From: Deltaproteobacteria bacterium
GTDB lineage: Bacteria; Bdellovibrionota; JACOXK01
Direction: 5' to 3'
NCBI GenBank assembly: GCA_016182335.1
Contig: JACOXK010000058.1
Location: 1 to 32,000 of the forward strand
DNA length: 32,000 nt
A program made the position numbers and the translations under genes. Positions within the stretch are counted from its first letter, which is position 1. Each line of letters opens with the position of its first letter. Under the pieces are notes generated by a model. That model saw only the letters and a program-made list of their open reading frames with translations. It did not search any database and was not told the origin of the DNA. Positions 7,418 to 24,150 of the stretch are shown here, in pieces.

Positions 7418-7907
7418 GGCCCAGATTGCTGAGAAGTCTTATAAGATCGATGTTCAGAAAAAAATGGCATCCTACGTTATAAAGATTGATTCTTCAGTTT
7501 ATGATATTCCCTTAAATTGGGAAAATCTGTTTGAACTTCATCATAAAACTCAGCAGGTTATTGCTTCCACAGTTTCAAAAACAAAGTTACGCTGTTTTAT
7601 TAATGGTCGGGCTTTGGATGTATTTATTCAGACTGAACAGGAAAAAATTCAAAGTTCACTTTCGCAGGCTGAAGAAGGACGTGAGTTGATAACTTCTATG
7701 CCCGGGAAAATTGTAAAAATTCTTGTAACTCAGGGCCAAAAAGTATCGAAAAATGAATCTGTTCTCATTATGGAAGCTATGAAAATGGAAAACATTTTGA
7801 AATCCCCTTGTAGTGGGGTTGTTCAATCGATTTATGTTAAAGAAAATGATAGTGTTGAGGCACAAACTAAGGTGCTTGAGATTGAATGTGAACAAGAAAA
7901 AATTTGA
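7407..7907 (+). CDS. accB: Biotin carboxyl carrier protein (biotinyl domain)
   Basis: 166 aa with a C-terminal biotinyl domain containing the EAMKMEN biotinylation motif. It overlaps accC by 11 nt. Confidence 0.85.
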
Positions 7908-9474
7908 AACAACCTCTCATATCGAAGTCAAAGAACTCTATACTAGAGAGGATGTTGAGGGTGAAAGTGGGAAGAACAGAATTGAAACTTCTGGCGCTTT
8001 TCCTTTCACTCGCGGCATTTATCCATCCATGTATCGAAAAAAATTATGGACAATGCGTCAGTATGCTGGGTTTGCTACAGCGGAAGAGTCCAATAAAAGA
8101 TATCGATATTTGTTTGATCATGGACAAACAGGATTGTCTGTAGCTTTTGATCTACCAACCCAGATGGGATTTGATTCTGACTCCCCAAAAGCGTTTGCTG
8201 AAGTAGGGCGCTCAGGAGTTGCTATCGACTCTTTACAGGACATGGAAATTCTTCTTAAAAATTTACCACTGGACCGCATTTCAACTTCTATGACGATTAA
8301 TGCAACGGCTGCCACTCTGCTTGCATGCTACATTGTGGTTGGTGAAAAGCAGGGCGTTGATACAAAAAAACTTCAAGGCACTATTCAAAACGACATTCTT
8401 AAAGAATATATTGCACGGGGTACTTATATTTATCCTCCAGAACCCTCTTTGAGATTGGTTTGTAATATTTTTTCATGGTGTCAGAAGAATTTACCCCAGT
8501 GGAATACAATCAGTATTAGCGGCTATCATATCCGAGAGGCTGGATCGAGCGCTGTGCAAGAACTGGCGTTTACACTTGCAAATGCAATCACTTATGTGGA
8601 GCAGGCTCTTAAGTCTGGCTTGAATATTGATGATTTTGCAGGACGCCTTTCCTTCTTTTTTAATGGGCATAATAATTTTTTGGAGGAGGTAGCTAAGTTT
8701 CGTGCTGCAAGAAGAATGTGGGCCAATATTATGAAAAATCGGTTTGGTGCTAAACTTCAGAGATCCTGGATGTTAAGGTTTCATACTCAAACAGGCGGGT
8801 CTACACTGATGGCAAATCAAATTGAAAACAACGTCGTGCGAGTTACTCTTCAAGCTTTGGCAGCAGTTTTAGGGGGGACTCAATCGCTTCATACAAACTC
8901 AAAAGATGAGGCTTTGTCTTTACCTTCAGACTCTGCTGCAAAACTTGCCCTACGAACTCAGCAAGTGATTGCCTACGAGTCAGGGGTAGCAGATTTTGTT
9001 GATCCGCTGGGTGGGTCTTACGCCGTTGAGAGTTTGACAAATGAGATTGAAAAGAAGGCCCTGGACTATATTTCGTTTATTGAAAAAAGGGGCGGAGTTG
9101 TTGCCTGTATTGAAGAAGGTTTTTTGCAATCTGAGATTCAGAAAGAAAGTTATGCTTATCAACAGTCTATCGAAAATAAAGAACAATTCGTTGTAGGAGT
9201 TAATATTTTCCAGGAGAATGAAAAAAAGCTTTCAAAAGTTCAAAAAATAGATGAAAGATCAATTAAGAAACAAATCAGCAAACTTCAAACATTGAGAAAG
9301 AAGAGAAATTCAAAGCTAGTACGTGAAAGTCTTTCTCGATTGGAGCAAGCCGCCAAAACGGCATCAGAAAATCTCTTTCCGTATATTCTTGAAGCCGTTC
9401 GTGGCTATGCAACGGTAGGAGAAATATCTAATACTCTGAGAAATGTTTTTGGAGAATACAAACCGTCATTTTAG
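7882..9474 (+). CDS. Methylmalonyl-CoA mutase, catalytic (large, N-terminal) subunit without the B12-binding domain
   Basis: The family is recognisable from [54 protein letters not shown] and [12 protein letters not shown]. The ORF is open from 7813, but that start lies inside the BCCP gene. The in-frame TTG at 7882 or GTG at 7888 gives the usual N-terminus, so the start is uncertain. The protein ends before any DxHxxG cobalamin-binding domain. Confidence 0.88.
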
Positions 9475-9686: not shown

Positions 9687-11324
9687 TCAACGTAGGGTCG
9701 GATGATCCCTAAAAACACCGGGTTGCACCCACAATTGATCGCGCTGAATTTCCTCTAAATTTAACTGACCATTATGAAAAAGTGCTTTGAGACTTGTTAA
9801 AACTGCCTTTTCTGCAGCAACTATCTTCGATGGCGTCACTTTTCGCTTGAAATCTTCTTCAATATGAAGAGCGACATATTCAGCAATTTGAGGAGGAAGT
9901 TTAGAAATAATTAAGTTTTTATAAGCAGAGAGCTTTCCTAGAAGAACAGCGACAATGTCATCTCGTGAAAGTTGGCTTAAAAATAGAGTCAGGTCATTTT
10001 CTTCCAGAAGACTTACAAGATCAAGTGTTATAATGCTTGATTTTAATTTCATGCCAAGCGTTGTATCTGCTTTTAAAATATCGTCTGCAAGTTCGTCGGG
10101 TTTATCATGAGATTCAACTAAATTGATAAGTGCATTAAATCCGGATGTTTCGTACAGATTCAAACTTGTGAGTTGAGCAGCTCGGTGGGCCAAGCGAAAA
10201 CTTAAATACTTAAGCTCATTCCAAGGCAGTGTTTCTATTGTGGCCAGTTCCAAAGCGACTGATTTCTGATCACTATCTTTTAAATTTTTAAACACGTTAC
10301 TTCGTGTTTCAATATCGAGTTGTAAAAGAAGGAGCGCTTGGCATCGAATATCTTCACCTTTAACCAAGTGAGCTATTTTTGTTGGTTCTAAATTTTTAAG
10401 AAAATCAAAATTGGACTCAATAACTTGATTTTCTTTCAGAGACAACAAACTTTCAAGTTCTATTTCATGACGAAACTGTGTTCCTATGCGCTTTACATCG
10501 GATACGCTTAAGTGCTGCATTTTTGAAAACTCAGATGTGAGCTCCTCTGCAGAGTTATTATTAAGAACTCCCTTAAGCTCTGATCGAAGATGAGTAGGAA
10601 GTGTGATAAGGACTTGAAGTGCATGGTGTAAACCCTGCGGCGATGCTGCCCACCGTTTCAACACATTTTTTGCTGTGCTCAGATGAGAAGCAACGAGATC
10701 TGCATAATGCGCTGGGCTTTGAATTGTTAGAGAATCTCCAATCGATATCCCTTGAGGGATTTCCTGATATGAAGGCACGACAGTGGGGGAGGGTTGAGAT
10801 TCGTGTTTTAAAACTGATGGCAAAACTGTTTTTTTCCTTTGACGACGCATAAAATAGAAGATGCCCATAATAGCTGCAAGAGTGGACATAATAAGAAAAA
10901 TCAGTAAAAAATAACCTCTTAAGTTTGAGAATATAGTTGGGTGAGGCACGGCTACAAATGAGTAATTTAAATGAAGTGCTGATTGAAATGGTTGTGCTTG
11001 ATGTTCAATATATTTTTGAAGAAAATCCCTAGTTTTTTGTGGAAGTTTCTCATCAGCCAGAATATTAACATCAATACCAGAAATAACAGTAGATGTTTGT
11101 GCTGCACTACCAGATTCTTCAAATCCAGGTTCCACAATACTACGTTGAACTGTAGTTTTTGAAGAGGATTTGATGAATACATCTAAGCACAGCTGTGGAC
11201 AATGGAGTTTGAATAACTCAAGAATGACAGGTTTCAAAACGCTTTCAGGCGTTTGTCCTGCACTGAACAAAGTCGTCATCGAGAGACTCACTACTAATTG
11301 ACTTAAGAGAATGAGTTTTTTCAT
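9687..11324 (-). CDS. Membrane-anchored FliG-like protein (signal peptide, ~115 aa periplasmic domain, one TM helix, ~380 aa cytoplasmic FliG/MgtE_N-like ARM repeats)
   Basis: 545 aa. It has an N-terminal signal peptide (MKKLILLSQLVVSLSMTTLFSA), a TM helix at aa 138-158 (YFLLIFLIMSTLAAIMGIFYF) and a following RRQRKK stop-transfer. Three FliG-like modules follow. The last one, LSRDDIVAVLLGKLSAYKNLIISKLPPQIAEYVALHIEEDFKRKVTPSKIVAAEKAVLTSLKALFHNGQLNL, resembles the FliG C-terminal torque-helix domain pattern (MSkRaaeml.EDle...v...dve.aq..iv...r.L...GeI). An AAGGTGG RBS precedes it, 13 nt after motB. Confidence 0.6.
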   Translation of the reverse strand: MKKLILLSQLVVSLSMTTLFSAGQTPESVLKPVILELFKLHCPQLCLDVFIKSSSKTTVQRSIVEPGFEESGSAAQTSTVISGIDVNILADEKLPQKTRDFLQKYIEHQAQPFQSALHLNYSFVAVPHPTIFSNLRGYFLLIFLIMSTLAAIMGIFYFMRRQRKKTVLPSVLKHESQPSPTVVPSYQEIPQGISIGDSLTIQSPAHYADLVASHLSTAKNVLKRWAASPQGLHHALQVLITLPTHLRSELKGVLNNNSAEELTSEFSKMQHLSVSDVKRIGTQFRHEIELESLLSLKENQVIESNFDFLKNLEPTKIAHLVKGEDIRCQALLLLQLDIETRSNVFKNLKDSDQKSVALELATIETLPWNELKYLSFRLAHRAAQLTSLNLYETSGFNALINLVESHDKPDELADDILKADTTLGMKLKSSIITLDLVSLLEENDLTLFLSQLSRDDIVAVLLGKLSAYKNLIISKLPPQIAEYVALHIEEDFKRKVTPSKIVAAEKAVLTSLKALFHNGQLNLEEIQRDQLWVQPGVFRDHPTLR

Positions 11325-11337
11325 AGAACCACCTTTT

Positions 11338-11982
11338 TTAATAAATTTTTAACGTTACCCTTCTGTTTATATTTCTGTATTCCTCAGCATCTGCAACTTC
11401 AGCTTTCTCTTCAAGTTTTTTAGGTCTCGTATGGGCAAATCCCCTTAATTGAATTCGATTTTCATCAATGCCGTGAAAACGCAAAAAATTAAGGAACTCC
11501 ATAGCCCTGTAGGCTGACAATTCCCAATTAGATGGAAATTTAAGTGTATGAATGGGTACATTATCTGTATGTCCCTCAACAATAAACGCCCATTTGTGAT
11601 CAATTGTTTTTAACTCCGAAACAAATGTCAAAATATGTGGCTTAGCCTCTTCCAAGAGGGCACTTTCTCCGGATTGAAATAAGAGAGAATGACTAAAATC
11701 AATTTCCAGAGACTCTTGTCCAATGCTTGTTGAAATCTTGGATTCCAAATGATTTGAGATGATAATAGAGTCAATCTGTTTTTTTAAATCGGCCAAAGAA
11801 TATTTAGGTTTTTTTTTGAAGTAATTCGTGAGCGATTCAAACCGATATGTGCTCATCACTGACATGGAGAGGAGAAATGCAAAGAAAACATAGAGATTTG
11901 TGATGAGATCTGAATAAGAAAGCAGCCATGGTGACTCATCATTCCGTGCAAACATGCTGTTTTGTACCAGTTCTTCAAGCAT
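11338..11982 (-). CDS. MotB-like stator subunit (TM plug with conserved Asp plus OmpA-like peptidoglycan-binding domain)
   Basis: 214 aa. The N-terminal SPWLLSYSDLITNLYVFFAFLL matches the MotB TM helix and includes the proton-binding Asp context (Y-S-D-L). The C-terminal OmpA-family motif series is IVEGHTDNVPI, NWELSAYRAMEFLNFL and NRRVTLKI. Its start directly abuts the motA-like stop. Confidence 0.85.
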   Translation of the reverse strand: MLEELVQNSMFARNDESPWLLSYSDLITNLYVFFAFLLSMSVMSTYRFESLTNYFKKKPKYSLADLKKQIDSIIISNHLESKISTSIGQESLEIDFSHSLLFQSGESALLEEAKPHILTFVSELKTIDHKWAFIVEGHTDNVPIHTLKFPSNWELSAYRAMEFLNFLRFHGIDENRIQLRGFAHTRPKKLEEKAEVADAEEYRNINRRVTLKIY

Positions 11983-12804
11983 TTAGATTTCCAAGCGGAT
12001 TGTCGTCGTCCCCATTTTTGGATGCGAAACAATTCGAGAGGAGCTTTCTGTGGCTGTTATGAAAGCAGCAAGATTTTCTTTTAATATCGGTCCATATACC
12101 TGGTTTTTAATAAGCTCTAAAGCTTCAATCATCATGGCATGAGATCTAGATTCCAGTTCCACATGATTGTTCACGTGACGAATGACTGGGAAGTAAAAAG
12201 CATAACTTGCAAGCAATCCGTACAAAGTCGTTAGCAACGCAAGCGCCATGCCAGCCCCAATCTGACTAAAATCGTCCATATTCTGTAACAGTGAAACCAA
12301 TCCTAACACTGTTCCCATCATGCCAAGAGCAGGTGTTATTTTTGACGAAAAATCAAACACCGAGATTTCTTTGAGGTCCTGAAGTCGCTTTGCATGCCAT
12401 TTATTTTTCAAAATACTTTTCAGTTCATCGGCATTATAATTTCCATTAAAAGTATGAATGCCTTCTCTTAAAAAGAGAGGCATATCTTGTGTGGGCGCAG
12501 CGATACGTCCACTTCGCTGATACTCTTTGGAACAATCCACAAGATGAGAAATGAGGCGTTGCTGTGATACTTTTTCAGGAGAAAAAAATACTTTAATGAG
12601 TCGACCCCAGGCCTTTAAAATATCTGAAAGTCCAAAGCTGTAGAGAACAATGAAAATGTGCCCTACAACTACAAATAAGAAGCTTGGTAGGTTAAACAAG
12701 CCTTTATATTCACTCGATCTTGATTGCATGATAAACAACAGGATCCACAAAAAACCGATAAGACCTATAAGGCTTGCGCATTTTCTCACCCACTGATAGT
12801 TCAT
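11983..12804 (-). CDS. MotA-like stator subunit (MotA/TolQ/ExbB proton-channel family, 4-TM MotA topology)
   Basis: 273 aa. Two N-terminal TM helices are followed by a ~100 aa cytoplasmic loop (SGRIAAPTQDMPLFLREGIHTFNGNYNADELKSIL, compare the MotA pattern GllalE...pfl..gl.l.vdg.d.e). TM3/TM4 then carry ITPALGMMGTVLGLVSLL and GAGMALALLTTLYGLLASYAFYFPV. Confidence 0.85.
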   Translation of the reverse strand: MNYQWVRKCASLIGLIGFLWILLFIMQSRSSEYKGLFNLPSFLFVVVGHIFIVLYSFGLSDILKAWGRLIKVFFSPEKVSQQRLISHLVDCSKEYQRSGRIAAPTQDMPLFLREGIHTFNGNYNADELKSILKNKWHAKRLQDLKEISVFDFSSKITPALGMMGTVLGLVSLLQNMDDFSQIGAGMALALLTTLYGLLASYAFYFPVIRHVNNHVELESRSHAMMIEALELIKNQVYGPILKENLAAFITATESSSRIVSHPKMGTTTIRLEI

Positions 12805-13430
12805 GATTTTGTTTTTGGTGAAAGAGTTGTAGGTGAAGACGCAGGGAGGCGAGAAATAGCCTGACGAATAATAGTATTAGCAGGATCTTCTTTAAGAACC
12901 AAAGACCATGATTCTCTGGCTAAATCATACATTCCTACCTTGGATGCAACGGTCCCGCGCAAGGAGAGAAGCTTCGTATCGCTTGGATAGGATTCAACAA
13001 GGGATTCCAATGTTACGAGTGCTAGTTCATAGTCTTTTTTACGAAAATGCTCTTTTACTTTCGCCAAACCTAAGAGATAACTTTGTCTGGCTAAAGATTG
13101 GCCAGATAAGGCAACCACATCTTGACCTTGAATCTGAGAATTGTCGTCACCAGATGATGGTATAGTTTGTAACCCATCAGTGTGAGAACTTTTAAGCTCT
13201 GCAAGAGTGTAGCGCACTAAAGTCGATTCACTATTTTCTCCAAGTGCTATTTCAATAGCATTCAAACCGAAGGACCGGCGAATGGTAATGGGTGATTTCG
13301 ATGACTGAGCTGTGTCTATGGTAAATGGATTGGATATTTCAGGGGAAGAGTGTTTGGAAATTTTGCGCATGGAAGCACATCCAACAATAAGAGACAAACA
13401 GATAATGACAAAAAGTTTTTTTCTATTCAT
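12801..13430 (-). CDS. TPR-repeat lipoprotein
   Basis: 209 aa with the lipobox LSLIVGC-A. The C-terminal half is TPR-like (YELALVTLESLVESYPSDTKLLSLRGTVASKVGMYDLARESWSLVLKEDPAN). A 4-nt ATGA-type overlap with the motA-like gene indicates translational coupling. Confidence 0.7.
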   Translation of the reverse strand: MNRKKLFVIICLSLIVGCASMRKISKHSSPEISNPFTIDTAQSSKSPITIRRSFGLNAIEIALGENSESTLVRYTLAELKSSHTDGLQTIPSSGDDNSQIQGQDVVALSGQSLARQSYLLGLAKVKEHFRKKDYELALVTLESLVESYPSDTKLLSLRGTVASKVGMYDLARESWSLVLKEDPANTIIRQAISRLPASSPTTLSPKTKS

Positions 13431-13433
13431 TGT

Positions 13434-14591
13434 TTACCACCTCATATTGATATTGAATGCAATATCTAAACAAAAACCAGAAACTTTTTTCGATTGTTTA
13501 TCAGACGAAAATTGTATTTGATTGCCAATGAGTTGAATCTTTTCAGAGCTCAGCATGGCATCTGACGGAAATAAGTAATTGATGTTGGCAGAAATTCCAA
13601 ATTTCTTTCCAATATCGAGCAAAAAACCTGGACCTAAAACAAAAGACTGATAGTTGTTTGTAAGAAGTGGGCCGCCGCCTACTGTTATATATTTTCTAAA
13701 TTTTTCTCCGCCCAGATTCATGAGGAGTTTTAACTCAAGAAGCCCCCCAGCATTGAGAAGAATGTCTTTATTGCTGGAATCTGAGAGTGGCTCAGTAAAT
13801 CCAGAGAGAATAATGCCAAAGTGATCAATAAACCCTCCCATGTACTCGAGTAGAGAGAAACTCACACTTGGATAATTCACATGATTTTCAAATCCAGGTA
13901 ATAGGAAAAAACCAGGGCTTACGGCGAGCCGATATTTAGCAAGGATGTTCACCGAGTCCGAAGGCCGTTTTGTGACAGAATCTTGTGATAGCAGCTGTCG
14001 CTCTGGATCGAGCGAAGAATATTTATCGCTCCAAATGACTTCTCCCTTAATAGCATCAAAAATGGCAACGCTCAAAACGATTTCATGTGGGGTATAATGG
14101 AATGTGCTTTCCAGGAAATAGCGAGTTCCCAAACTATGAGAGAGAGATTGCAATTCTTCATTTTTTTGCACACCCTGTTGCACAATAAGGTCATTAGCAT
14201 CCGTTGTGACAAGAGTGCGAAAGCAGCTCATACATTTGATAGATTTAATGGAGACTTTTTCAATGAGGGCCTGATCGATTCTATCTCGAAGAATATCGCG
14301 AAACTTAGGTTGGATATCACCCTGGAGATTGATTTTATACTGGCTTAATTTTTGAATACGTAAGTTTGAACTCGAAAGATCTGTAGCAAATCTCTCAACA
14401 AGAGAGTCCAGTACAGAGTAGAAATCAATTTTTCCATCAAGCGTGCTTGCATATTCCGCATTGACGTGATTTGAAAAAAACACAACACAGTTTAATCCAA
14501 GAAAAATAACGAGAAATCGCAGTAGAACAAAACGATTTTGCAACACAAAACGACCTTCACCCAACGCTAACTTTTTTTGATAAGATGTCAA
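13434..14591 (-). CDS. Secreted two-domain envelope protein, candidate outer-membrane beta-barrel
   Basis: 385 aa. The signal peptide ends HVNA-EY. The N-terminal ~170 aa has the alternating pattern seen in FlgO/CsgG/LpoB-like periplasmic modules (...LGTRYFLESTFHYTPHEIVLSVAIFDAIKGEVIWS). The C-terminal half is Gly/aromatic-rich with amphipathic strands and ends ...IAFNINMRW, an aromatic terminus typical of OMPs. The family assignment is inference. Confidence 0.45.
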   Translation of the reverse strand: MTSYQKKLALGEGRFVLQNRFVLLRFLVIFLGLNCVVFFSNHVNAEYASTLDGKIDFYSVLDSLVERFATDLSSSNLRIQKLSQYKINLQGDIQPKFRDILRDRIDQALIEKVSIKSIKCMSCFRTLVTTDANDLIVQQGVQKNEELQSLSHSLGTRYFLESTFHYTPHEIVLSVAIFDAIKGEVIWSDKYSSLDPERQLLSQDSVTKRPSDSVNILAKYRLAVSPGFFLLPGFENHVNYPSVSFSLLEYMGGFIDHFGIILSGFTEPLSDSSNKDILLNAGGLLELKLLMNLGGEKFRKYITVGGGPLLTNNYQSFVLGPGFLLDIGKKFGISANINYLFPSDAMLSSEKIQLIGNQIQFSSDKQSKKVSGFCLDIAFNINMRW

Positions 14592-14598
14592 CTTTCAT

Positions 14599-15639
14599 TC
14601 AGGGTAACAGTATGTGATAGCGGATATCCACTTGGTCACCAGCAGCCACATGAGACCTTTTGAGGAAAAACAACTCCTGTGTTGACTCGTTATAATGCCA
14701 CTCACTTGGGTTTGCTTTAAGACCATTAAGATAAACCTCAATAGAACCGCGTTGTGCAGCATAGGTTAAAACTTTACGAGTCATATGCTCAAAAAGTATT
14801 TGTATTATTTTATTTATGACTTGTTTTGAATCTTGCAAGAGATCACACAATTCAAGACTTATGCCAGAAGTTTGACTTACAAATTCAGCAAGAGTTGTTG
14901 CTCGTCGATACTCCAAGTTATTGCATTGATCACTTCCCTCTTTGAAAATGAGGGCAATAGGTTGGAACAGTGCTTTTGATTTTAATGTCTGCATAGAGGC
15001 TACAATGTGATCGACTGGAGTTGTTCCTTCGTCATCCGCGTTAGATATAAAAATTGGAAAGAAATGGGTATTTCCTTCTCGAAGGAATCCGCTTTTCATG
15101 AGGGTTACCAACTTCTCAAGTGGGAAATTTGATGCTTCTCCCCCAGTAAAGTTTAAAGCTCCAAGAGTTTCTGATAATTTATTGAGTCCACTCACCGTGA
15201 AAGCGTTATTCGCAAAAATATCCTCTCCCCATGGAGTACTATCATGGGATGTTATCAACCGAAGTTTGAAAGAAAGCTTTGGTCGAAGATGGTGATATTC
15301 TGGAGGGTCCATGAGAGAGGCTAAGAGAAGATGACTTGATTCTTTGAGGGCTTGAATAAAAGGTGACATTTTTTTCTTGGCATGAAGAATAAATGCTATA
15401 TCAAGGTTTCCCTGTGGCACTTCGTGAATGAAACCATCCAACCACAGCTGTGGCAGGGATGTGGCGGGAGGTTCTAATAATGGGGGATTGTCAGGTTCGT
15501 AATGTGGGCTAACAGGCGCAGGTAACGGTTTCTCTTTTTGCTTAGGTGCAATAAATTCAGGAGCTCCACAATGAAGAAAGAGTGTTGCCACAAGAAGGGA
15601 TATAAATTTATGGATTTTGAGGATCTTGTTTGACACCAT
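14599..15639 (-). CDS. Secreted vWA-like paralog with a degenerate MIDAS (possible non-canonical lipoprotein)
   Basis: The ORF is open to 15777, but that extension overlaps the upstream gene by 170 nt. The internal ATG at 15639 gives the signal peptide MVSNKILKIHKFISLLVATLFLHCG. The position equivalent to the vWA MIDAS reads LDIAFILHAKKKM, so the DxSxS is lost. The C-terminal motif IEVYLNGLKANPSEWHYNESTQELFFLK..AAGDQVDIRY is shared with the two neighbouring vWA lipoproteins. Confidence 0.55.
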   Translation of the reverse strand: MVSNKILKIHKFISLLVATLFLHCGAPEFIAPKQKEKPLPAPVSPHYEPDNPPLLEPPATSLPQLWLDGFIHEVPQGNLDIAFILHAKKKMSPFIQALKESSHLLLASLMDPPEYHHLRPKLSFKLRLITSHDSTPWGEDIFANNAFTVSGLNKLSETLGALNFTGGEASNFPLEKLVTLMKSGFLREGNTHFFPIFISNADDEGTTPVDHIVASMQTLKSKALFQPIALIFKEGSDQCNNLEYRRATTLAEFVSQTSGISLELCDLLQDSKQVINKIIQILFEHMTRKVLTYAAQRGSIEVYLNGLKANPSEWHYNESTQELFFLKRSHVAAGDQVDIRYHILLP

Positions 15640-16846
15640 ACAACACTGTAATTTTTCCACCTTGCGGCACTTTGGGTTTGTTCGTAAGGATGATTTCATT
15701 TTTTTGAGTATCATAAGTAAAGTCACGTCCCATAAGCAGTGGATAATAATTATAAAGAACTTTAAAAGACTTGCCATCGAAAGTATGGGGAATTTTTTTA
15801 AGAATAATTCTTTTTGTGTAGGATAAAGAGAGTTGTGCTACATCACTCAATGTATTCTTTTTCAAAAGCTCACATAAATCCAGTCGATGTCCATAGAAAT
15901 GTTGGTGACTGAGTTGTTCTAATTTATCTGATGTCTTGGTTAAACTGTAAGGACAAGTCTGAATATTCATGCGAAATAGCGCTGTAAATACGCTTAAGTA
16001 CGGTGGTCTATAAATTTTATGAATTTGTGACAAAAAATGAGAGGTTGCTATGTCATGAGAAAGCTCGTCCGAACTTATGAAGAAAAATACACTGAGCGCA
16101 TCTTCCTCTCGAAAATCGGCAGAGTTATGTAATAACTCCAGTGTTTTAGAATAAGAAAGAATATGAGGTTGGCCTTGATATCCAAGCTGTGACATGAATT
16201 GAGGAAAGACGGCAAAATCTCGTGCCGTACTTATAAAGTTTTTCCCACTCACAGAAATGAGACGTGCTTCATCAGAAGGCATGAATCCTATCTTATATTG
16301 AAGATGAGAGAGATTGTTTGATAAAAATTCTGGAGCAAATTTTGTGCTTGCTAAGACAAGATCAGAGTGAATGTCTTCCATAGGTTCCGAGGTATCAACG
16401 ACAAAAAGTATTGAGAGTTTTCCAGAAGGAAGGCCGTAATAAAAATCTTCCTCATAAAGTTGAAAATCTGGAGGAGTTGGCCCACCAGGTTGTGTAGGAT
16501 CTGGAAGAGGAATGGGCACTGGATCAGGATTGCCTCCTCCCCCGCCCCCTGGAGTTCCACCTTCACCGGGATTGGTACCTGGTGCGCTCCCCCCTCCTGA
16601 ACCGCCATTAGGAGGAGATCCCGGAGTGCCACCGCCTCCTGGGTTGGTGTCAGGTGAACCATTACTATCTCCACCAGAACCAGCGTCTGGAGGGACAATT
16701 TTTCCATCCGGTGTTTTATTTTCAACATAGAGATTAAAGACTCGGCGAGAGCTTGAACCGCAAGATAAATTGAAAACTAACGGTGCAACAATGGCTAATG
16801 GAACTATTACTGACTTCACGGTTGAAGGTAACCTTAAGTCATTCAT
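15608..16846 (-). CDS. vWA-domain lipoprotein with a Gly/Pro-rich low-complexity linker
   Basis: 412 aa with the lipobox VFNLSC-G. A ~75 aa G/P/N/S/T-rich linker spans aa 52-127. The vWA-like core follows, with LSILFVVDTSEPMEDI as a partly degenerate MIDAS (DxSxP) and a later FFFISSDE. The C-terminal beta-domain is FKVLYNYYPLLMGRDFTYDTQKNEIILTNKPKVPQGGKITVLY. Confidence 0.7.
   Translation of the reverse strand: MNDLRLPSTVKSVIVPLAIVAPLVFNLSCGSSSRRVFNLYVENKTPDGKIVPPDAGSGGDSNGSPDTNPGGGGTPGSPPNGGSGGGSAPGTNPGEGGTPGGGGGGNPDPVPIPLPDPTQPGGPTPPDFQLYEEDFYYGLPSGKLSILFVVDTSEPMEDIHSDLVLASTKFAPEFLSNNLSHLQYKIGFMPSDEARLISVSGKNFISTARDFAVFPQFMSQLGYQGQPHILSYSKTLELLHNSADFREEDALSVFFFISSDELSHDIATSHFLSQIHKIYRPPYLSVFTALFRMNIQTCPYSLTKTSDKLEQLSHQHFYGHRLDLCELLKKNTLSDVAQLSLSYTKRIILKKIPHTFDGKSFKVLYNYYPLLMGRDFTYDTQKNEIILTNKPKVPQGGKITVLYGVKQDPQNP
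16466..16693 (-). repeat. Low-complexity Gly/Pro-rich coding tract inside the 412-aa lipoprotein gene
   Basis: It encodes DAGSGGDSNGSPDTNPGGGGTPGSPPNGGSGGGSAPGTNPGEGGTPGGGGGGNPDPVPIPLPDPTQPGGPTPPD, with iterated units of the type TNPG-GGG-TPG. It also creates spurious ORFs in other frames and on the other strand. Confidence 0.8.
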
Positions 16847-16899
16847 TCAGGTAATTTTATTACAAAAGCTCTTCGTATCATTGTCAAATAATTGGAGCT

Positions 16900-18012
16900 T
16901 TGTTAGATCATAATATAATTAGGTATCGTTGTTCAGTGAAAAAAATTATCATTTTAGTTGCTTTTGCATCTCTGACATCGTGCGAAAAAACGGGTCTTAA
17001 GTACGAAACTTCTTTAGAGGATGATCCTTCACGTATTGTTTTTGTTGATCCTCGAATTATTTCCTCCCATAAACCTCCATGGATGCAACCGTATAGACGC
17101 GTCATTGAGCGTGATACTGCGCCTGTAAATCAACCGCCTTCGCGCGGAATTTTTACTAACGTGGTGGATAAGTATGAGAAGAAAAAAAATCATGAAGAGG
17201 CTGATATTTTATGGGTTATTGATAATTCGTGCAGCATGGCTGAAGAACGTGACAAAGTTTCACAAAATCTCGATGCTTTTATGAGGGACTTTAAATTGAG
17301 TCATGTTGATTTTCATATGGGTGTTATTTCAACACACACCCATGATGCTCTTTTTTATGGAGCCCCACCCGTGCTTCTTTCAAATGATCCAGAATTAGAG
17401 CGCAGATTTTCAGAACGTGTTCGGATGCCGCAAGTATGCGGTTTTTCTGCTGCTTTGCATGCTGCCCATTTGGCGCTGAGCGAGCCGCGAATTTCTGGAT
17501 ATAACAAAGATTTTTTACGATCAGAAGCGCATCTCATTATTATTATCATTTCTGACGCAGATGAAGACTATAAAATGAGCAGCTCTGAATATCTTAGTTT
17601 TTTCCAGTCACTTAAAGCAAGTGAACCGCATAAAGTCGTCATTAACTCCATCGTTGGAGATTCTCCGAGTGGTTGTTCATCTGCTGGCGGGAATGCAGAA
17701 CCTGGGTTGCAATACATTGAATTAACACAAAGTACTCGAGGTTTTTTTGAAATCATTTGCAGTAACAACTTTAAAGAAAGCATGAACAATATTGGCCGTA
17801 ATCTCGATAAATATATCAACTCTTATCCACTGACTCATATTCCTTCAATTCGATATCCTCTTGTTGTTACAATCAATGGTCGTGTCGTGGAGCGACACCC
17901 AATACATGGCTGGGTGTACAATGCCGAACTCAATCTTATTTTATTTGAGGGAGATATTAAACCTATTGTTGGAGATAAAATTGAAATCGCTTACCTTCAT
18001 GAAGAAAATTAG
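16900..18012 (+). CDS. vWA-domain lipoprotein with an intact MIDAS motif
   Basis: The ORF starts at TTG 16900. The in-frame GTG at 16936 gives the clean lipoprotein signal MKKIIILVAFASLTSC-E and is probably the real start. The vWA core is ADILWVIDNSCSMAEERDKVSQNLDAFM (DxSxS intact) with a later LIIIIISDADED. The C-terminal beta-domain is LVVTINGRVVERHPIHGWVYNAELNLILFEGDIKPIVGDKIEIAY. Confidence 0.8.
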   Translation: MLDHNIIRYRCSVKKIIILVAFASLTSCEKTGLKYETSLEDDPSRIVFVDPRIISSHKPPWMQPYRRVIERDTAPVNQPPSRGIFTNVVDKYEKKKNHEEADILWVIDNSCSMAEERDKVSQNLDAFMRDFKLSHVDFHMGVISTHTHDALFYGAPPVLLSNDPELERRFSERVRMPQVCGFSAALHAAHLALSEPRISGYNKDFLRSEAHLIIIIISDADEDYKMSSSEYLSFFQSLKASEPHKVVINSIVGDSPSGCSSAGGNAEPGLQYIELTQSTRGFFEIICSNNFKESMNNIGRNLDKYINSYPLTHIPSIRYPLVVTINGRVVERHPIHGWVYNAELNLILFEGDIKPIVGDKIEIAYLHEEN

Positions 18013-19033
18013 TCTTCTTATAAGCTTATTTCTAGTGGGCTTGACCTCTCAAGGATTAGCACTGGTTTGGTGGGGCGAAGAAATAACCTCACTTAAATAC
18101 ATTATGCCCATCCAATATTTTGTACGAAATGAAGATGTTTTTTACATGGGGCTTCAAAACTTTGGTATTGATCGTGTCATTTACAATAATTACAAACTTT
18201 CTCGTGATAAAGTTTTTAGATTCTCTGGTATCATGGACCCTTCTGTGAAATTAAACTTCCTTCTTAAAGGCGATATGCTCATAGTTGGAGGCATTTACGA
18301 CGGTTTTTTAGCACTCGATACAAAATCGGATTATCCATCACCCACTTCAAAGAGACATGATCTTGTTTTTAAGCCCAATGAAAATACAATTGTTTATTCT
18401 TCTCTTCTCAAATCCCTCTTATGGAAAGGTCAACTTGTACTTCTTACGGCTGATCAGGTTATTCTGGGTAGTCTGCAGAACCCACTTAAGTTTAACGTCA
18501 ATGCGAGCGTTGGTTTAGCGCCAAATTATCCTTTGCAACCCAATGATTGGAAAGAATTTTGGGCTACCGATATGGCGCTCTATGGCAATTATTTGTACGT
18601 TCTTCTTGCGCATGAGAAAACTCCGCAGATTGCATACCTTAACCTTTCACAGCCACTGGAAAGTCTTAAAGTAAATTATGTTCCCCTCAATGTTTCAGAA
18701 TATTATCTTAAATCCTTAGCGGTTAGTGATAGTAGATTATATATAACTCAGAATAAGACACTTCATAGTTTTGTCATTGATGAAGAAGGCATGCCGACCG
18801 TGGAGTGGTCGCATACCCAGAAGCACTTCATAGAAACTGTAACTACGTTTTCGATGGGTATTATTCTCTCGTTCTTTGAGGCTGGACTTGCGTTCTTTGA
18901 AAATCAAGACCTTACAAAAGAACAGGCCATTATTTTTCCTCCAAAAACTTGGGAGCAGGTTGAGGTTGTGGATAATCTTTTGTTTGGTTCAGCAGGAGAA
19001 GATGGTTTTTATGTATATCAAAAATATAATTAA
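17999..19033 (+). CDS. Secreted beta-propeller-like protein (LVIVD-like repeats)
   Basis: The ORF is open from 17861. The ATG at 17999 gives the signal peptide MKKISLLISLFLVGLTSQGLA and overlaps the upstream stop by 14 nt. It has recurrent blade-like motifs: GDMLIVGGIYDGFLALDTKSDYPSP, LYGNYLYVLLAHEKTPQIAYLNLSQP, VSDSRLYITQNKTLHSFVIDEEGMP and LLFGSAGEDGFYVY. The family call is by pattern only. Confidence 0.5.
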   Translation: MKKISLLISLFLVGLTSQGLALVWWGEEITSLKYIMPIQYFVRNEDVFYMGLQNFGIDRVIYNNYKLSRDKVFRFSGIMDPSVKLNFLLKGDMLIVGGIYDGFLALDTKSDYPSPTSKRHDLVFKPNENTIVYSSLLKSLLWKGQLVLLTADQVILGSLQNPLKFNVNASVGLAPNYPLQPNDWKEFWATDMALYGNYLYVLLAHEKTPQIAYLNLSQPLESLKVNYVPLNVSEYYLKSLAVSDSRLYITQNKTLHSFVIDEEGMPTVEWSHTQKHFIETVTTFSMGIILSFFEAGLAFFENQDLTKEQAIIFPPKTWEQVEVVDNLLFGSAGEDGFYVYQKYN

Positions 19034-19667
19034 GACATTGATATTTTTCTCTTTGTGGGGATGGACTGGAACTATCTTGGGTGAGTCGCCTTCGCAAAGC
19101 ACTTGGCTGGATTACGAAATCCGTCTTAAAGCCGTGTACAACCAAAAATATGAGCACCATCATCGACATGAGCTCTCCACTTTTTCATCACTGTATTTTA
19201 GAAATGATCTTAATTTATCATATGGTTTTGGAGCTGATTATGCCTATCATTTCACTCCTACTTTAAGTTGGGAAGCGGCTCATTTTCTTTACTTAAATCA
19301 AGTTGAGACAATACTGCGCCAGGATATAAGAAATAAAACAGGTTTGATACCGGATGTAGAAGAAAATGAATTCTTTGTTACTTCTTCAATCATGTTTCAT
19401 CCTGCGTACGGCAAATTGGCTTTCTTTGGAAGGCACATTGCGTATTTTGATCTCTATGTTGTTGCGGGTGGAGGCATTCGAAAACTCTTGAACCTTTCTC
19501 AACTTAAATCTGCTTTTTCGTTTGGTGCAGGTTTCAGATGCTATCTGAGTCACAAACTTACTCTCAAGATTGATGCCAGAGACATGTTGTTTCAGGAAGA
19601 ACATCAATCCGGTGCATCTATTATTCATTCTTTTACACCTGTTTTAGGATTGAGTTTACTTCTATGA
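19002..19667 (+). CDS. Outer-membrane beta-barrel protein (myxobacterial-type OMP domain, GltA/GltB-like)
   Basis: The ORF is open from 18876. ATG 19002 or 19011 gives the signal peptide (M)YIKNIIKTLIFFSLWGWTGTILG, and GGAGAAG lies just upstream. The sequence has alternating amphipathic strands and the motif HPAYGKLAFFGRHIAYFDLYVVAGGGI, which I recognise from the OMP_myx_plus-type beta-barrel family. Confidence 0.6.
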   Translation: MVFMYIKNIIKTLIFFSLWGWTGTILGESPSQSTWLDYEIRLKAVYNQKYEHHHRHELSTFSSLYFRNDLNLSYGFGADYAYHFTPTLSWEAAHFLYLNQVETILRQDIRNKTGLIPDVEENEFFVTSSIMFHPAYGKLAFFGRHIAYFDLYVVAGGGIRKLLNLSQLKSAFSFGAGFRCYLSHKLTLKIDARDMLFQEEHQSGASIIHSFTPVLGLSLLL

Positions 19668-20734
19668 AGTTAAAACTCTGTGTCATTACATATTTCATAT
19701 TTACTTTTGCCAATGCAGACTTTCCCCGAATGGCGGATGCATGGCGTGCCTATGCTAACCAAGATTACATTCAATCTTTGCAACAGTTGTACAGGGTCCG
19801 CAGCATTGCTCAAGAAAGAGTGCTTGCTGAAACCTTTTATTTGGAAGGACTTTTGGCTTACCGATTGGGTTATAGTTTGAGGTTGGCAGCCATTTATCAG
19901 ACTTATGAAGTGCAGTTCATGCATAAGCTCTCTTCATTGCCAAATAATATAAAAAAAGATGTTTGCTTGTATTGGGTGAGGCTCTCAAGTCTTCTAGCAG
20001 ATGTTTATAAAAGTATGCTGGTGGTACAATCTGTAGAATTGTTCCAGTCTTTGTCTTCGACTGAAAGTGCACTTCGCACGCCTTCTGGATCTGGGGCTTA
20101 CACGTGGCCTCTGATACTAGCTACTGAGAAAGAAGTACAGGAGGTATGGTTGGATGAATTGGGTGCTGATACCATAATCACTATTTCTGAAAAGAAAGAA
20201 AAGGGGGAGAGTCTTACTCCTGAAATTATTTTTGTTCGTTTAAGCGATGCAGTTTCACGCTCTCTTGTTTTTTATGAACAAAAAATTCTAGAGAAGGATT
20301 TTTTTTATAATCGCCTGCGTTTGCTCTTTTTAGATTATAAATTGGATAGAGGAGAAGGAGGAGAGGAGTTTTTGGTTGTATCTCAAAAAGCTTATCTGAA
20401 ACTCTATGGAGAAAGTCGGTTTTCAATGCTCCAGTCACTCATTCAACTTCGGCTGAGTAGAATCAACTCTAAACTTAAGACATTAAGGGCCATGAGTTTT
20501 AAGAAAAGTGTTACTGCAGTGACAAGCCAAAACTACAAAACTGATCAACCCAATATAGAGCATGTTATTGTTCTAGGCATGATTGAAACAAAGCCTATTC
20601 GCAAGGAAGCAGTGAGGCAAGGGGTGTCTTCTTTTTTCTCGGCTGATCCTGTACCCTATATACCTGGTGCCGGTCCGGAGAGTTGGAATGAGAAAATTGC
20701 AGAGTCCATCCATGACAAAAAAATCTCAGATTGA
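19664..20734 (+). CDS. Secreted hypothetical protein (helical, TPR-like N-terminus)
   Basis: 356 aa with the signal peptide MKLKLCVITYFIFTFANA. An ATGA start/stop overlap with the upstream OMP gene indicates coupling. I recognise no family. The N-terminal AWRAYANQDYIQSLQQLYRV...FYLEGLLAYRLG looks TPR-like. Confidence 0.5.
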   Translation: MKLKLCVITYFIFTFANADFPRMADAWRAYANQDYIQSLQQLYRVRSIAQERVLAETFYLEGLLAYRLGYSLRLAAIYQTYEVQFMHKLSSLPNNIKKDVCLYWVRLSSLLADVYKSMLVVQSVELFQSLSSTESALRTPSGSGAYTWPLILATEKEVQEVWLDELGADTIITISEKKEKGESLTPEIIFVRLSDAVSRSLVFYEQKILEKDFFYNRLRLLFLDYKLDRGEGGEEFLVVSQKAYLKLYGESRFSMLQSLIQLRLSRINSKLKTLRAMSFKKSVTAVTSQNYKTDQPNIEHVIVLGMIETKPIRKEAVRQGVSSFFSADPVPYIPGAGPESWNEKIAESIHDKKISD

Positions 20735-21539
20735 GTTTCGGCTGCTTGTCTTCAACAAGTCTTCTCTGATTAAAAAACTATCTTTTCGAACGGAAGAACT
20801 CATTCTTGGTTCGATAGCTCAATCTCAGGTTAATTTAACTAAGGCAGATGGTACTGTTCTTTTAGAAGGTAGATTCTACTGGAAGTCGAGGTACGTTCTG
20901 ATTTTTGAAAAACACTTCATGCAATCAGAAGAAATACAAGCAACTTTACTCCAGAATCACAATGCAAGTGCTGCCACGTTTGAGTATCAGAATGATGAGA
21001 TGGTAATACAGGTGAGATCTTTGCTCATAGGAGAACCGCCTGATTCTCTGTCAATACGACCTACCTTCACTCAAAATCTGTCTGTTCCAACGATAAAAAA
21101 ACAAGTTCATAAATCAGTATTTGTGACTGCAATGATAGTTCTTGTTGTGCAACTGAGCTTAATAGTAAAACTCAATGAGCGCAAAAACGTGAGATTAGAG
21201 GGGCATGAACAACAAATCTCTAAAGTTTTAGCCCCCACGGTCAACAAACCGTTCATGCCACGTATCCCAGGGCCTAAGCATTATGAAAAAATTATCTTAA
21301 AGAACAAAAAGGATATCGAGTTTTGTCAGAAAAACTTCGATTTTGAGGATGGCCCCGTTCAGTTCAAAGTGCTTATTAATCCTATGGGTGGAGTCTTTTC
21401 TGTCGATGTTTTGTCTTCCACACTTGGTGTGGAAATAATGGAGTGCTTGAATGCGAGAATTAAATCATGGTTGTTTCCCCCTATTGAAAATATTTCAAAA
21501 ACATTATTTTTTGCTGTGAATTTTAAAAAGGAATCTTGA
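20712..21539 (+). CDS. Single-pass membrane protein with a TonB-C / AgmX-PglI-type periplasmic C-terminal domain (GltG/GltJ-like)
   Basis: The ORF is open from 20667. The ATG at 20712 (MTKKSQIEF...) overlaps the upstream gene by 23 nt. The TM helix is VFVTAMIVLVVQLSLIV. The C-terminus, CQKNFDFEDGPVQFKVLINPMGGVFSVDVLSSTLGVEIMECLNARIKSWLFPP, fits the AgmX/PglI C-terminal (TonB_C-like) pattern C...G.v.v.f.I...G.v..v.v.sstl.....eC....i..w.FP. The cytoplasmic N-terminus is only weakly FHA-like. Confidence 0.6.
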   Translation: MTKKSQIEFRLLVFNKSSLIKKLSFRTEELILGSIAQSQVNLTKADGTVLLEGRFYWKSRYVLIFEKHFMQSEEIQATLLQNHNASAATFEYQNDEMVIQVRSLLIGEPPDSLSIRPTFTQNLSVPTIKKQVHKSVFVTAMIVLVVQLSLIVKLNERKNVRLEGHEQQISKVLAPTVNKPFMPRIPGPKHYEKIILKNKKDIEFCQKNFDFEDGPVQFKVLINPMGGVFSVDVLSSTLGVEIMECLNARIKSWLFPPIENISKTLFFAVNFKKES

Positions 21540-23778: not shown

Positions 23779-24150
23779 AATAATCTCCCCCTTAGGAACA
23801 CCACACCAGTTCCCTTTCATTTGAGAGCCGTTAAAAAAAATTGCTTGATGAGAAGTGAATATCCGCCTTATAATTTTAACACTAGCATATGATGAGAGAG
23901 TGTCGCAAGTATATTCAGTTTTAAGTTGTTTAAAGTTTTTGCAATAGTGTTTTAATTTTAGTTAATAGGTATAAGAAAATATACAATATATATTAAATTA
24001 ATATATCAAATGAGTTATAGAATTAATGAAAATAATTTTCATTTATCGTTTATAATTTAGACAAATTATATTTTTATTAAACATGGTGAGGCGCTATGAA
24101 AAATGTTGATTTATTTACATTATTGTAGTTATTTGGACATTCTTGCTTTT

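Follow-up and report, generated by a model that had tools for sequence, protein, structure and literature searches.

In the flagellar motor, canonical FliG is a soluble protein which docks on the C-terminus of FliF, and to our knowledge torque generation between FliG and MotA is known solely from the flagellum. MotAB-like units can also serve roles other than motility, as in Zorya, and the known Ton and Tol systems couple inside the membrane and not via a MotA cytoplasmic domain. Stators combining a plug and an OmpA-type anchor with a large cytoplasmic interface are treated as flagellum-specific (Puente-Lelievre et al., mBio 2025), and engineered fusions of FliF with FliG have been found to assemble rings (Salmonella; Vibrio, PDB 8z4d and 8z4g). 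Here we examine a locus in a stretch of 32,000 nucleotides from a Deltaproteobacteria bacterium (positions 1–32,000 of contig JACOXK010000058.1, assembly GCA_016182335.1; GTDB lineage Bdellovibrionota, JACOXK01), referred to below as the window, in which a 545-amino acid (aa) membrane-anchored FliG-like protein is encoded directly downstream of motA and motB homologs. The protein is annotated in the source metagenome-assembled genome (MAG) as hypothetical protein HYS98_03190.

The components of this locus are known, but the system which they are proposed to form, with a rotor that is a natural fusion of a truncated FliF-like part to FliG, a dedicated stator and envelope partners, is not described in the literature we searched. 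Full-text searches found no account of such a module, returning the engineered FliF–FliG fusions and a passing remark on Elusimicrobiota alone; the module is mentioned neither in the 2025 stator phylogeny (Puente-Lelievre et al., mBio 2025) nor in a 2026 review of gliding, and the paper on Bdellovibrio MIDAS adhesins makes no mention of MotA or FliG. We consider the likeliest reading, with a probability of roughly 0.55, to be that of a switchless and export-free FliG/MotAB motor in which a ring of the FliF-like/FliG fusion is driven by MotA5B2 and the output is lineage-specific. If this is true, the rotor–stator pair would be a portable unit able to work without an export apparatus, which bears on the evolutionary assembly of the flagellar motor. 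It would also provide a minimal, switchless rotor in a single polypeptide for structural and single-molecule work, and would account for the presence of ‘enigmatic’ motAB and fliG genes in bacteria without flagella.

A membrane-anchored protein with a complete FliG

Pfam matches to FliG_C (40.5 bits), FliG_M (31.8 bits) and FliG_N (32.2 bits) were obtained for the 545-aa protein, each over its gathering cut-off, along with an MgtE_N match, and the protein also matches FliG structures 3hjl and 1lkv in the PDB by sequence. TIGR00207 and phmmer alone pick up just an MC fragment of its FliG part, and the full extent was given by an hhalign alignment of the FliG-like family with canonical FliGs of about 335 aa, in which residues 228–529 of the window protein correspond to FliG 4–331 (probability 100%, E = 8e-44). 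Because this family alignment covers FliG 4–331, we take the cytoplasmic part to be a complete FliG with N, M and C domains. The AlphaFold2 (AF2) model, produced with 30 family members as input, has a predicted local distance difference test (pLDDT) score of 81 and is all-helical over residues 204–531; in a Foldseek search of the PDB the top match is full-length FliG 3hjl (E = 2.6e-9, 330 aligned columns), with FliG chains of recent C-ring cryo-EM structures as the runners-up. The product is a single-pass membrane protein in which a small periplasmic domain and a transmembrane (TM) helix are joined to a complete FliG, and by these profile and sequence comparisons its homology to FliG goes far beyond chance. 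An initial annotation of the window, made from the sequence and its open reading frames (ORFs), had proposed a full-length FliG-like protein with a signal peptide, a periplasmic segment, a single TM helix preceding RRQRKK and a FliG part, and the ORFs, hydropathy, AF2 model and Pfam matches place all of these where it had put them and give the predicted fold as that of FliG.

It could be argued that the FliG similarity is that of a generic ARM or MgtE_N-like repeat unrelated to torque and that the gene order is coincidental, as the Pfam scores of the window protein are modest (32–40 bits) and the FliG_N match overlaps the FliG_M match. This we find scarcely credible, as the alignment at E = 8e-44 is collinear over the whole of FliG, the linkage with MotAB is kept in three gene orders, and a charge pair at the stator interface is conserved and co-varying (both described below). 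Chance ARM similarity is effectively refuted by the profile alignment, the conserved linkage and the charge co-variation taken together.

The 545-aa protein is nevertheless not an orthodox FliG. Unlike FliG it has a signal peptide and a TM anchor, it is not part of a fliFGH-type operon, and it scores only 34.7 bits against the TIGR00207 fliG equivalog, far under the cut-off of 226.7. The EHPQ(R) motif which binds FliM is not kept, with Glu alone retained in the E324-D-I-R of the window protein and KDE-P-x-G found at this position in the wider family, and the MFXF hinge is IITL. We note that a weak Pfam match to BatA on the TM helix was treated as noise.

Hydropathy indicates an N-terminal hydrophobic segment at residues 4–22 and a single TM helix before RRQRKK, and the AF2 model has a periplasmic domain at residues 26–124 and a disordered linker at 166–201 on either side of the long helix (Table 1). 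We place the N-terminal part in the periplasm because two Cys residues (CxxxC) are invariant in it, because relatives and orthologs carry AxA-type signal peptides, and because K and R are in excess after the TM helix; the CxxxC motif and this positive-inside bias are consistent with the oxidising environment of the periplasm. A GFE motif, an Asp and a Pro are also invariant in the periplasmic domain in the family alignment. Sequence features of this kind support a periplasmic N-terminal part and a cytoplasmic FliG part, and the topology evidence agrees here with the initial annotation, which had put the C-terminal region inside the cell.

Modelled alone by AF2 (pLDDT 87; predicted template modelling score, pTM, 0.71), the periplasmic domain has two 15-residue strands and a helix–strand–strand–helix–strand succession (H4–19, E24–38, E54–69, H74–87 and E94–102). 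This alpha-beta-beta-alpha-beta fold beside a TM helix is the ring-building motif (RBM) fold of FliF and SctJ, and the fold itself is generic. PrgK is among the Foldseek matches of the domain, and the search of this domain alone against the PDB gave nothing below E = 1e-3. Neither YscJ_FliF nor YscJ_FliF_C from Pfam matches the window protein itself. YscJ_FliF_C is matched right before the TM helix in a subfamily of about 600 aa (14 of the 68 members tested, at E values down to 7e-8 and for the most part just under the gathering cut-off), and hhalign aligns the window-type periplasmic domain with that of this subfamily from end to end (104 columns, probability 84%, E = 7.6e-6). The link of the window domain with FliF is indirect because it runs through the matches of this subfamily. 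These comparisons support a FliF-like periplasmic domain at the level of the family and are suggestive of one in the window protein itself, so that the miniature FliF–FliG topology proposed in the initial annotation stands for the family and is no more than suggestive for this member.

When compared with flagellar FliF and FliG, the periplasmic alpha/beta domain, TM helix, linker of about 40 residues and FliG with complete N, M and C domains mirror the arrangement of a FliF C-terminus and the FliG that comes after it, and relatives match YscJ_FliF_C. Unlike these proteins, it is a natural fusion, with a signal peptide in place of TM1 of FliF and a single CxxxC periplasmic domain of about 110 aa, and no beta-collar, RBM1 or RBM2 is detectable in it.

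A large family of membrane-anchored FliG proteins

A word-indexed homolog search with the single protein found only itself and one relative, and the same search with a 68-sequence profile found itself alone; the family was exposed by an exhaustive phmmer (HMMER) search of 1.84 billion representatives, in which 318 matches were obtained at E ≤ 1e-3. Among the best 150 of the 318 matches (50%-identity clusters), 122 are proteins of 480–970 aa with an internal TM helix upstream of a FliG part of about 400 aa (122/122), a signal peptide-like N-terminus is found in 108 of these 122, and K and R are more numerous after the TM helix than before it in 106. Canonical FliGs of 330–350 aa rank under the membrane-anchored members in the phmmer list, and FliG_C and FliG_M were matched by all 68 members tested with Pfam. 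The few members which have been named are labelled ‘FliG C-terminal domain-containing protein’ or ‘flagellar motor switch protein FliG’. Membrane-anchored FliG proteins are a large uncharacterised family, and this includes a subgroup of 750–830 aa with two or three tandem CxxxC domains in a layout reminiscent of RBM1–3 of FliF. With a narrower family alignment (A5) as the query we found four genome loci and eight metagenome loci, and with the window-clade alignment no loci were found in the JGI metagenomes.

A conserved gene module with a dedicated MotAB stator

Genomic context was recovered for 21 family loci, 14 of them informative in the 545–730-aa group, and in 13 of the 14 the FliG-like gene lies with genes for MotA, MotB and a tetratricopeptide repeat (TPR) protein, and usually also for a protein we call X370. 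Three gene orders are found. The first is X370–TPR–MotA–MotB–FliG-like, seen in the window, in L002 and in L016, where the contig begins inside the TPR gene. The second is FliG-like–X370–TPR–MotA–MotB, seen in L004, L009, L010–L013, L019 and L022, with its beginning also seen on the truncated contigs L020, L021 and L023. The third places the FliG-like gene after TPR and before MotA–MotB, with X370 ahead of TPR in L015 and without it in L014. In L001, which belongs to the same clade as the window, the contig begins just upstream of the FliG-like gene and this locus is outside the informative set for MotAB. The sole exception in the size class is a member of about 640 aa (L018, 2454–4376) with opposite-strand neighbours and no X370, TPR or MotAB gene within 2–4 kb, and adjacent MotAB genes are also absent from the three sampled loci of the 750–830-aa subgroup (P0011, L006 8001–10241; P0015, L008 1266–3608; P0008, L017 1574–4048), in two of which the FliG-like gene directly follows a DsbA/thioredoxin-like gene. 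The persistence of the linkage through three gene orders is a signature of selection for co-expression, and the five-gene set is conserved across distant lineages which include the Elusimicrobiota, from whose MAGs loci L004 and L010–L013 are drawn. The genomes with the fusion also include GCA_964507905.1.

The stator proteins have the architecture which the initial annotation had read from the sequence, namely a four-TM MotA and an adjacent MotB with its conserved Asp in SYSDL and an OmpA domain, as seen from Pfam and from alignment with PomA. MotA (Pfam MotA_ExbB, 67.8 bits) has a large domain between TM2 and TM3 and keeps the Pro and Thr residues of TM3 and TM4 (‘tPAlGmmGT’, ‘yFPv’); its closest solved relative is Vibrio PomA 8bri (E = 4e-25, residues 9–232 aligned). 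MotB (MotB_plug, 40.3 bits; OmpA, 42.3 bits) has the channel Asp and Trp, and the peptidoglycan-binding GHTDN...SNWELS...NRRV, with an unusually short linker. In these respects they resemble PomAB and MotAB of the ‘FIT’ clade, with the four-TM MotA, the TM3/TM4 Pro and Thr, and the plug, Asp and OmpA-type anchor of MotB (Puente-Lelievre et al., mBio 2025), but differ in falling under every NCBIfam equivalog cut-off for PomA, MotA and MotB (118 against 341 bits for MotA and 117 against 283 for MotB, which scores 103–117 bits with the MotD, MotB and MotS models), in the very short MotB linker, in the loss of the MotA E98 equivalent in the window clade, and in having as partner a membrane-anchored FliG and not the C-ring.

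We also considered that the stator might belong to a Zorya-like phage defence or other signalling system, with the FliG-like protein as its effector or sensor. Non-motility roles of MotAB-like units provide a precedent, and MotB matches ZorB models at 62 bits, but its scores with the flagellar MotB/MotD models are higher (117 bits), MotA (273 aa) reaches only E = 0.003 against ZorA and has no long ZorA tail, no ZorC or ZorD was found, PADLOC finds no match for the other five proteins, and the neighbours are housekeeping and envelope genes and not a defence island. Membership of Zorya was rejected on the PADLOC result (ZorA E = 0.003 and no ZorC or ZorD), and the wider idea of defence or signalling seems to us very improbable.

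In X370 a signal peptide is followed by an N-terminal alpha/beta domain which is weakly FlgO/LpoB-like (Pfam FlgO is weakly matched by four of nine X370 homologs, best E = 0.006) and a C-terminus ending in an aromatic residue, as in outer-membrane barrels, and the TPR protein has weak and generic TPR matches. A PomAB-like stator with a TPR protein and a weakly FlgO-like protein recalls the H- and T-rings of Vibrio and other stator scaffolds (FlgO/FlgP/FlgT and MotX/MotY; PflA/PflB; FlcA), though here the similarities are weak, X370 has an extra C-terminal putative beta-barrel, and there is no flagellar basal body. We note separately that the Leptospira BatC TPR model is weakly matched by five of ten module TPR proteins.

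The neighbours of the Elusimicrobiota modules differ from those in the window clade and sometimes include type IV pilus genes or a MoxR–DUF58–vWA set. Such a Bat-like set (MoxR AAA, DUF58, DUF4381 and vWA), a further connection with vWA proteins, lies directly downstream of MotB in L014 (13496–16573), which is a circular metagenomic genome of 2.17 Mb. At four loci (L004 16090–21334, L008 5147–11180, L014 16593–17039 and L015 1–35) the FliG-like gene has genes of type IV pili or type II secretion (PilX_N, T2SSF, T2SSE, PilMNOPQ, pilin and secretin) within 10 kb, and this may be coincidence.

Charges at the stator–rotor interface

Thirteen cognate pairs of MotA and FliG-like proteins were aligned, with PomA and the FliG proteins of E. 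coli and T. maritima as references. In all 11 modules outside the window clade the position of PomA E96 (E98 in E. coli MotA) is acidic, and in the same 11 Arg or Lys stands at the position of FliG R281. Both partners of this pair are lost in the window clade, where MotA has P (S in L002) and the FliG position is an invariant Gln in the window protein (Q479), P0002, P0003 and P0004. The basic MotA residue in the region of PomA K89 (E. coli R90) is retained in these 11 modules and, as Arg, in the window clade, and an acidic patch is retained in FliG, with D or E at 288/289 in the other modules. The initial annotation had noted an acidic EED cluster in the torque-helix region of the window protein; the cluster is present (E489-E490-D491) but sits 2–4 residues past the equivalents of D288/D289, which are L486/H487 in alignments with E. 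coli, T. maritima and A. aeolicus FliG. The conservation of the pair and its joint loss in one clade are what a real contact between MotA and FliG predicts, and this is corroborative and not statistical proof because the co-loss is a single evolutionary event.

Absence of flagellar genes from the window and flanks

No flagellar gene was found among the proteins of the 32-kb window, and flanks of up to 10 kb at the related loci contain no fliF, fliM, fliN or flhA and no rod, hook or filament genes. According to a preprint, free-living Elusimicrobiota possess motAB and fliG but lack the structural genes of the flagellum, and two of our loci can be connected with it, as L011 is from the Zod_Metabat.202 MAG which it names and the record name of L004, JACQPE01, is that of an Elusimicrobiota order in the preprint. 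The recurrence of the gene set in bacteria without flagella suggests that the torque-generating pair also serves a non-flagellar envelope machine. This, the synteny at 13 of 14 loci and the content of the window agree with the initial annotation, in which the genes had been described as a self-contained stator and rotor-interface module outside any flagellar locus.

The module might instead assist a canonical flagellum whose genes lie elsewhere in the genome, acting as a stator reservoir, brake, clutch or decoy which binds MotAB units, or be the real rotor of an unusual flagellum. The flagellar-type MotA and MotB would suit this, the closest relatives of the window Lon protease are from ‘Deltaproteobacteria’ and Bacteriovoracaceae MAGs, and Bdellovibrio-like bacteria are flagellated (2026 gliding review). 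We think it quite improbable, however, given the dedicated MotAB at 13 loci, the module in Elusimicrobiota reported to be without structural flagellar genes, the absence of fliF, fliM, fliN and flh genes from every flank examined, and the loss of the FliM-binding motif; we would also expect a single 110-aa periplasmic domain to be unable to house an export gate.

A candidate motor in the cell envelope

In the motor we propose, copies of the fusion protein would associate in the inner membrane by way of their periplasmic domains and by stacking of the FliG ARM repeats, and the resulting ring would present the FliG_C torque helices just beneath the membrane. We infer such a ring because the periplasmic domain has the ring-builders’ fold, all FliG domains are retained, and engineered FliF–FliG fusions assemble rings. 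MotA5B2 units, anchored to peptidoglycan and driven by ions, would push on the torque helices through the electrostatic interface used in the flagellum, and would either turn the ring or be displaced relative to it. A type III export apparatus, rod, hook and filament would all be absent from this machine, and with neither an EHPQ FliM-binding motif nor fliM or fliN present we assume it has no switch, from which it follows that the device should be unidirectional. The TPR protein and X370 may form a scaffold for the stator or link the motor with the outer membrane, and could in this be static scaffolds in the manner of MotX/MotY, FlgO/P/T, PflA/B and FlcA, or be an output which receives the force. 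The mechanical output would be specific to the lineage, and in the window clade is probably provided by vWA/MIDAS lipoprotein adhesins, an outer-membrane barrel and a GltG-like protein in a surface machine of the gliding or adhesion type.

A number of observations weigh against this reading. Ring formation and contact with MotA are both inferred, and in a sequence-profile search of PDB sequences the periplasmic domain found neither FliF nor SctJ, with the FliF MS-ring matched by Foldseek at E = 1.6e-3 to 1e-2 (TM-score about 0.4) in a tie with OsmC and the C-terminal domains of cation-diffusion facilitators. The torque-helix charges are remodelled in the window clade, and the canonical R281 and D288/D289 positions are uncharged in the window protein. 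L018 and all three sampled members of the 750–830-aa subgroup are without adjacent MotAB genes. The similarities to FlgO, GltG and MIDAS adhesins are weak or far under the family cut-offs, the Glt-like neighbourhood is found in one clade only (three loci), and our survey of flagellar genes in this genome spans the 32-kb window only, which also favours the accessory explanation considered above.

A further possibility is that the FliG-like protein is a force transducer which does not rotate, a monomer or small oligomer comparable with TonB or TolA, whose FliG domain is cranked by MotA with the force passed through the TM helix to the TPR protein and X370 and no ring formed. The module does include a probable outer-membrane barrel and a periplasmic TPR protein, as do the Ton, Tol and Glt systems, a nearby protein (w290) has a tail resembling the TonB_C-like GltG/AgmX domain, and the window protein has just one small periplasmic domain. 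We nevertheless judge a transducer unlikely, since all three FliG domains are kept, including FliG_N and the ring-building ARM_M and ARM_C, the periplasmic fold is that of ring builders with relatives matching YscJ_FliF_C, and coupling in Ton and Tol is intramembrane and does not pass through a MotA cytoplasmic domain. The module is like ExbBD–TonB, TolQR–TolA, GldLM and ZorAB in having an ion-driven unit of the MotA/ExbB family, a single-pass partner and outer-membrane components, and differs from them in that the partner would be contacted through a cytoplasmic FliG domain.

Returning to the rotary motor, a broader proposal which we put forward only tentatively, as one we would not yet favour, is that it represents a widespread and distinct class of ion-driven motors, in which MotA5B2 and a FliG ring with a natural fusion rotor would work without an export apparatus, rod, hook, filament or switch and would power a process of the envelope, with a Glt-like adhesin or gliding output in the present case, and which might be a pre-flagellar relic or an early offshoot.

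A Glt-like neighbourhood in the window clade

Seven genes flank the module at all three loci of the window clade (window 14599–21539, on both strands; L001 2555–10516; L002 5705–12579), and three of them (w370, w412 and w392) encode paralogous vWA-like lipoproteins. In w370 there is a lipobox and an intact vWA signature of the metal ion-dependent adhesion site (MIDAS), DILWVIDNSCSM ... IIISDADED, with DNSCS as the DxSxS motif, and the protein weakly matches the NCBIfam model of the Bdellovibrio MIDAS-family adhesin at E = 2e-10 and 40 bits, where the model cut-off is 700. The corresponding motif in w412 is DTSEP (DxSxP, with DxSxT in orthologs) and w392 has a degenerate MIDAS. A further gene product, w263, is an outer-membrane beta-barrel of the TIGR04565 family (OMP_myx_plus; 99.5 bits against a cut-off of 60), which is expanded in myxobacteria, and w290 has a TM helix and a C-terminus like the TonB_C-like tail of GltG/AgmX (E about 1e-5, under the cut-off). 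PDB sequence searches with w370 and w390 gave no matches, and a weak Pfam match of w412 to SWM_repeat was treated as noise.

The adhesin CglB of the Myxococcus Agl–Glt system is a vWA lipoprotein, and the vWA/MIDAS lipoproteins, OMP_myx_plus barrel, GltG/AgmX domain and TPR lipoproteins in and around the module recall the Agl–Glt machinery of Myxococcus and Bdellovibrio (AglRQS, GltA–K and CglB), which in Myxococcus has parts of these kinds in its outer half. The difference is in the motor, which here would be of the MotAB type with an OmpA anchor and a FliG rotor and not a TolQR-type AglRQS (TolQ is matched at just E = 1e-3). We hypothesise from these similarities that the seven genes encode an apparatus resembling a Glt-like gliding or adhesin system and are a lineage-specific cargo of the module, and the link with vWA/MIDAS lipoproteins and Glt-like proteins suggests a candidate gliding or adhesion motor in the window lineage. 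The motor and adhesins of Bdellovibrio gliding are regarded as a major open challenge (2026 review).

Layout of the locus and neighbouring genes

The module and the two lipoprotein genes upstream of it are one operon of tightly packed ORFs on the minus strand (15608–16846 and 14599–15777, followed by the five module ORFs), with intergenic gaps from 14599 downwards of 7, 3, -4, 0 and 13 nt (Table 1). A Shine–Dalgarno sequence (AAGGTGG) precedes the start codon (ATG) of the 545-aa ORF by 6 nt, and promoter and terminator scans of the locus were at background level. The ORF calls for w392 (14599–15777), w390 (17861–19033), w263 (18876–19667) and w290 (20667–21539) overlap the preceding gene by 70–170 nt, and as homology and signal peptides begin 45–70 residues into these proteins their true starts are probably internal.

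Table 1. Positions in the window of the module genes, the domains of the FliG-like protein and the syntenic flanking genes.
Feature	Position	Strand	Basis
FliG-like membrane protein, 545 aa (signal peptide, periplasmic domain, TM, linker, FliG N/M/C)	9687..11324	-	ORF, Pfam, hhalign, AF2, Foldseek
Signal peptide, residues 1–23, likely cleaved after SAG	11256..11324	-	Hydropathy, AxA-type signal peptides of orthologs
Periplasmic alpha-beta-beta-alpha-beta domain, residues 24–130; invariant C42/C46 (CxxxC), GFE, D91 and P127	10935..11255	-	AF2, alignment, hhalign, Foldseek
TM helix core, residues 138–156, then RRQRKK	10857..10913	-	Kyte–Doolittle 2.41; AF2 helix 131–164
FliG_N-like helical domain, residues 204–299	10428..10715	-	hhalign, Foldseek; six helices, pLDDT about 90
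FliG_M-like domain, residues 307–387; E324-D-I-R in place of EHPQ	10164..10406	-	Pfam FliG_M; 3hjl/1lkv alignments
FliG_C-like domain, residues 391–531	9732..10154	-	Pfam FliG_C 40.5 bits; alignments
Torque-helix equivalent, residues 476–493, LPPQIAEYVALHIEEDFK	9846..9899	-	Alignments with E. coli, T. maritima and A. aeolicus FliG_C
MotB/PomB-type stator B subunit, 214 aa (TM Asp in SYSDL, plug, very short linker, OmpA-like domain)	11338..11982	-	Pfam, NCBIfam, PomB/MotB alignment
MotA/PomA-type stator A subunit, 273 aa, 4 TM, TM2–TM3 cytoplasmic domain of about 100 aa	11983..12804	-	Pfam, PomA 8bri
Lipoprotein-like TPR protein, 209 aa, conserved module member	12801..13430	-	Weak TPR matches; orthologs adjoin MotA in 13 loci
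X370, 385 aa (signal peptide, N-terminal alpha/beta domain, C-terminal putative outer-membrane beta-barrel), conserved module member	13434..14591	-	Alignment, Pfam FlgO, synteny
Two paralogous vWA-like lipoproteins, w392 and w412, same packed operon upstream	14599..16846	-	Spacing, paralogy, synteny in L001/L002, motifs
Divergent syntenic cluster w370, w390, w263, w356, w290	16900..21539	+	NCBIfam, MIDAS motif, synteny in L001/L002

The window also encodes Lon, a Dps-like ferritin, propionyl-CoA carboxylase subunits, methylmalonyl-CoA mutase, a subtilase, a glycosyltransferase and ftsZ–ftsA–ftsQ–ddl–murB–murC. The Lon protease shares 66–69% identity with its counterparts in other ‘Deltaproteobacteria’ MAGs and 53% with the one in a Bacteriovoracaceae MAG, and on the basis of these identities we consider the source lineage to be deep-branching and loosely placed. 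A propionate/methylmalonyl block on the plus strand (4363–9474; carboxyltransferase, biotin carboxylase, a BCCP-like protein and the methylmalonyl-CoA mutase large subunit) is transcribed towards the FliG-like gene and faces its 3' end, and no convincing terminator was found in the 212-nt spacer between them. On the far side of the Glt-like genes, a secreted subtilase encoded on the minus strand (22045–23820; Peptidase_S8 with a fervidolysin-type pro-domain) has a C-terminal CUB match, which is unusual in bacteria, and adjoins a 165-aa TPR protein.

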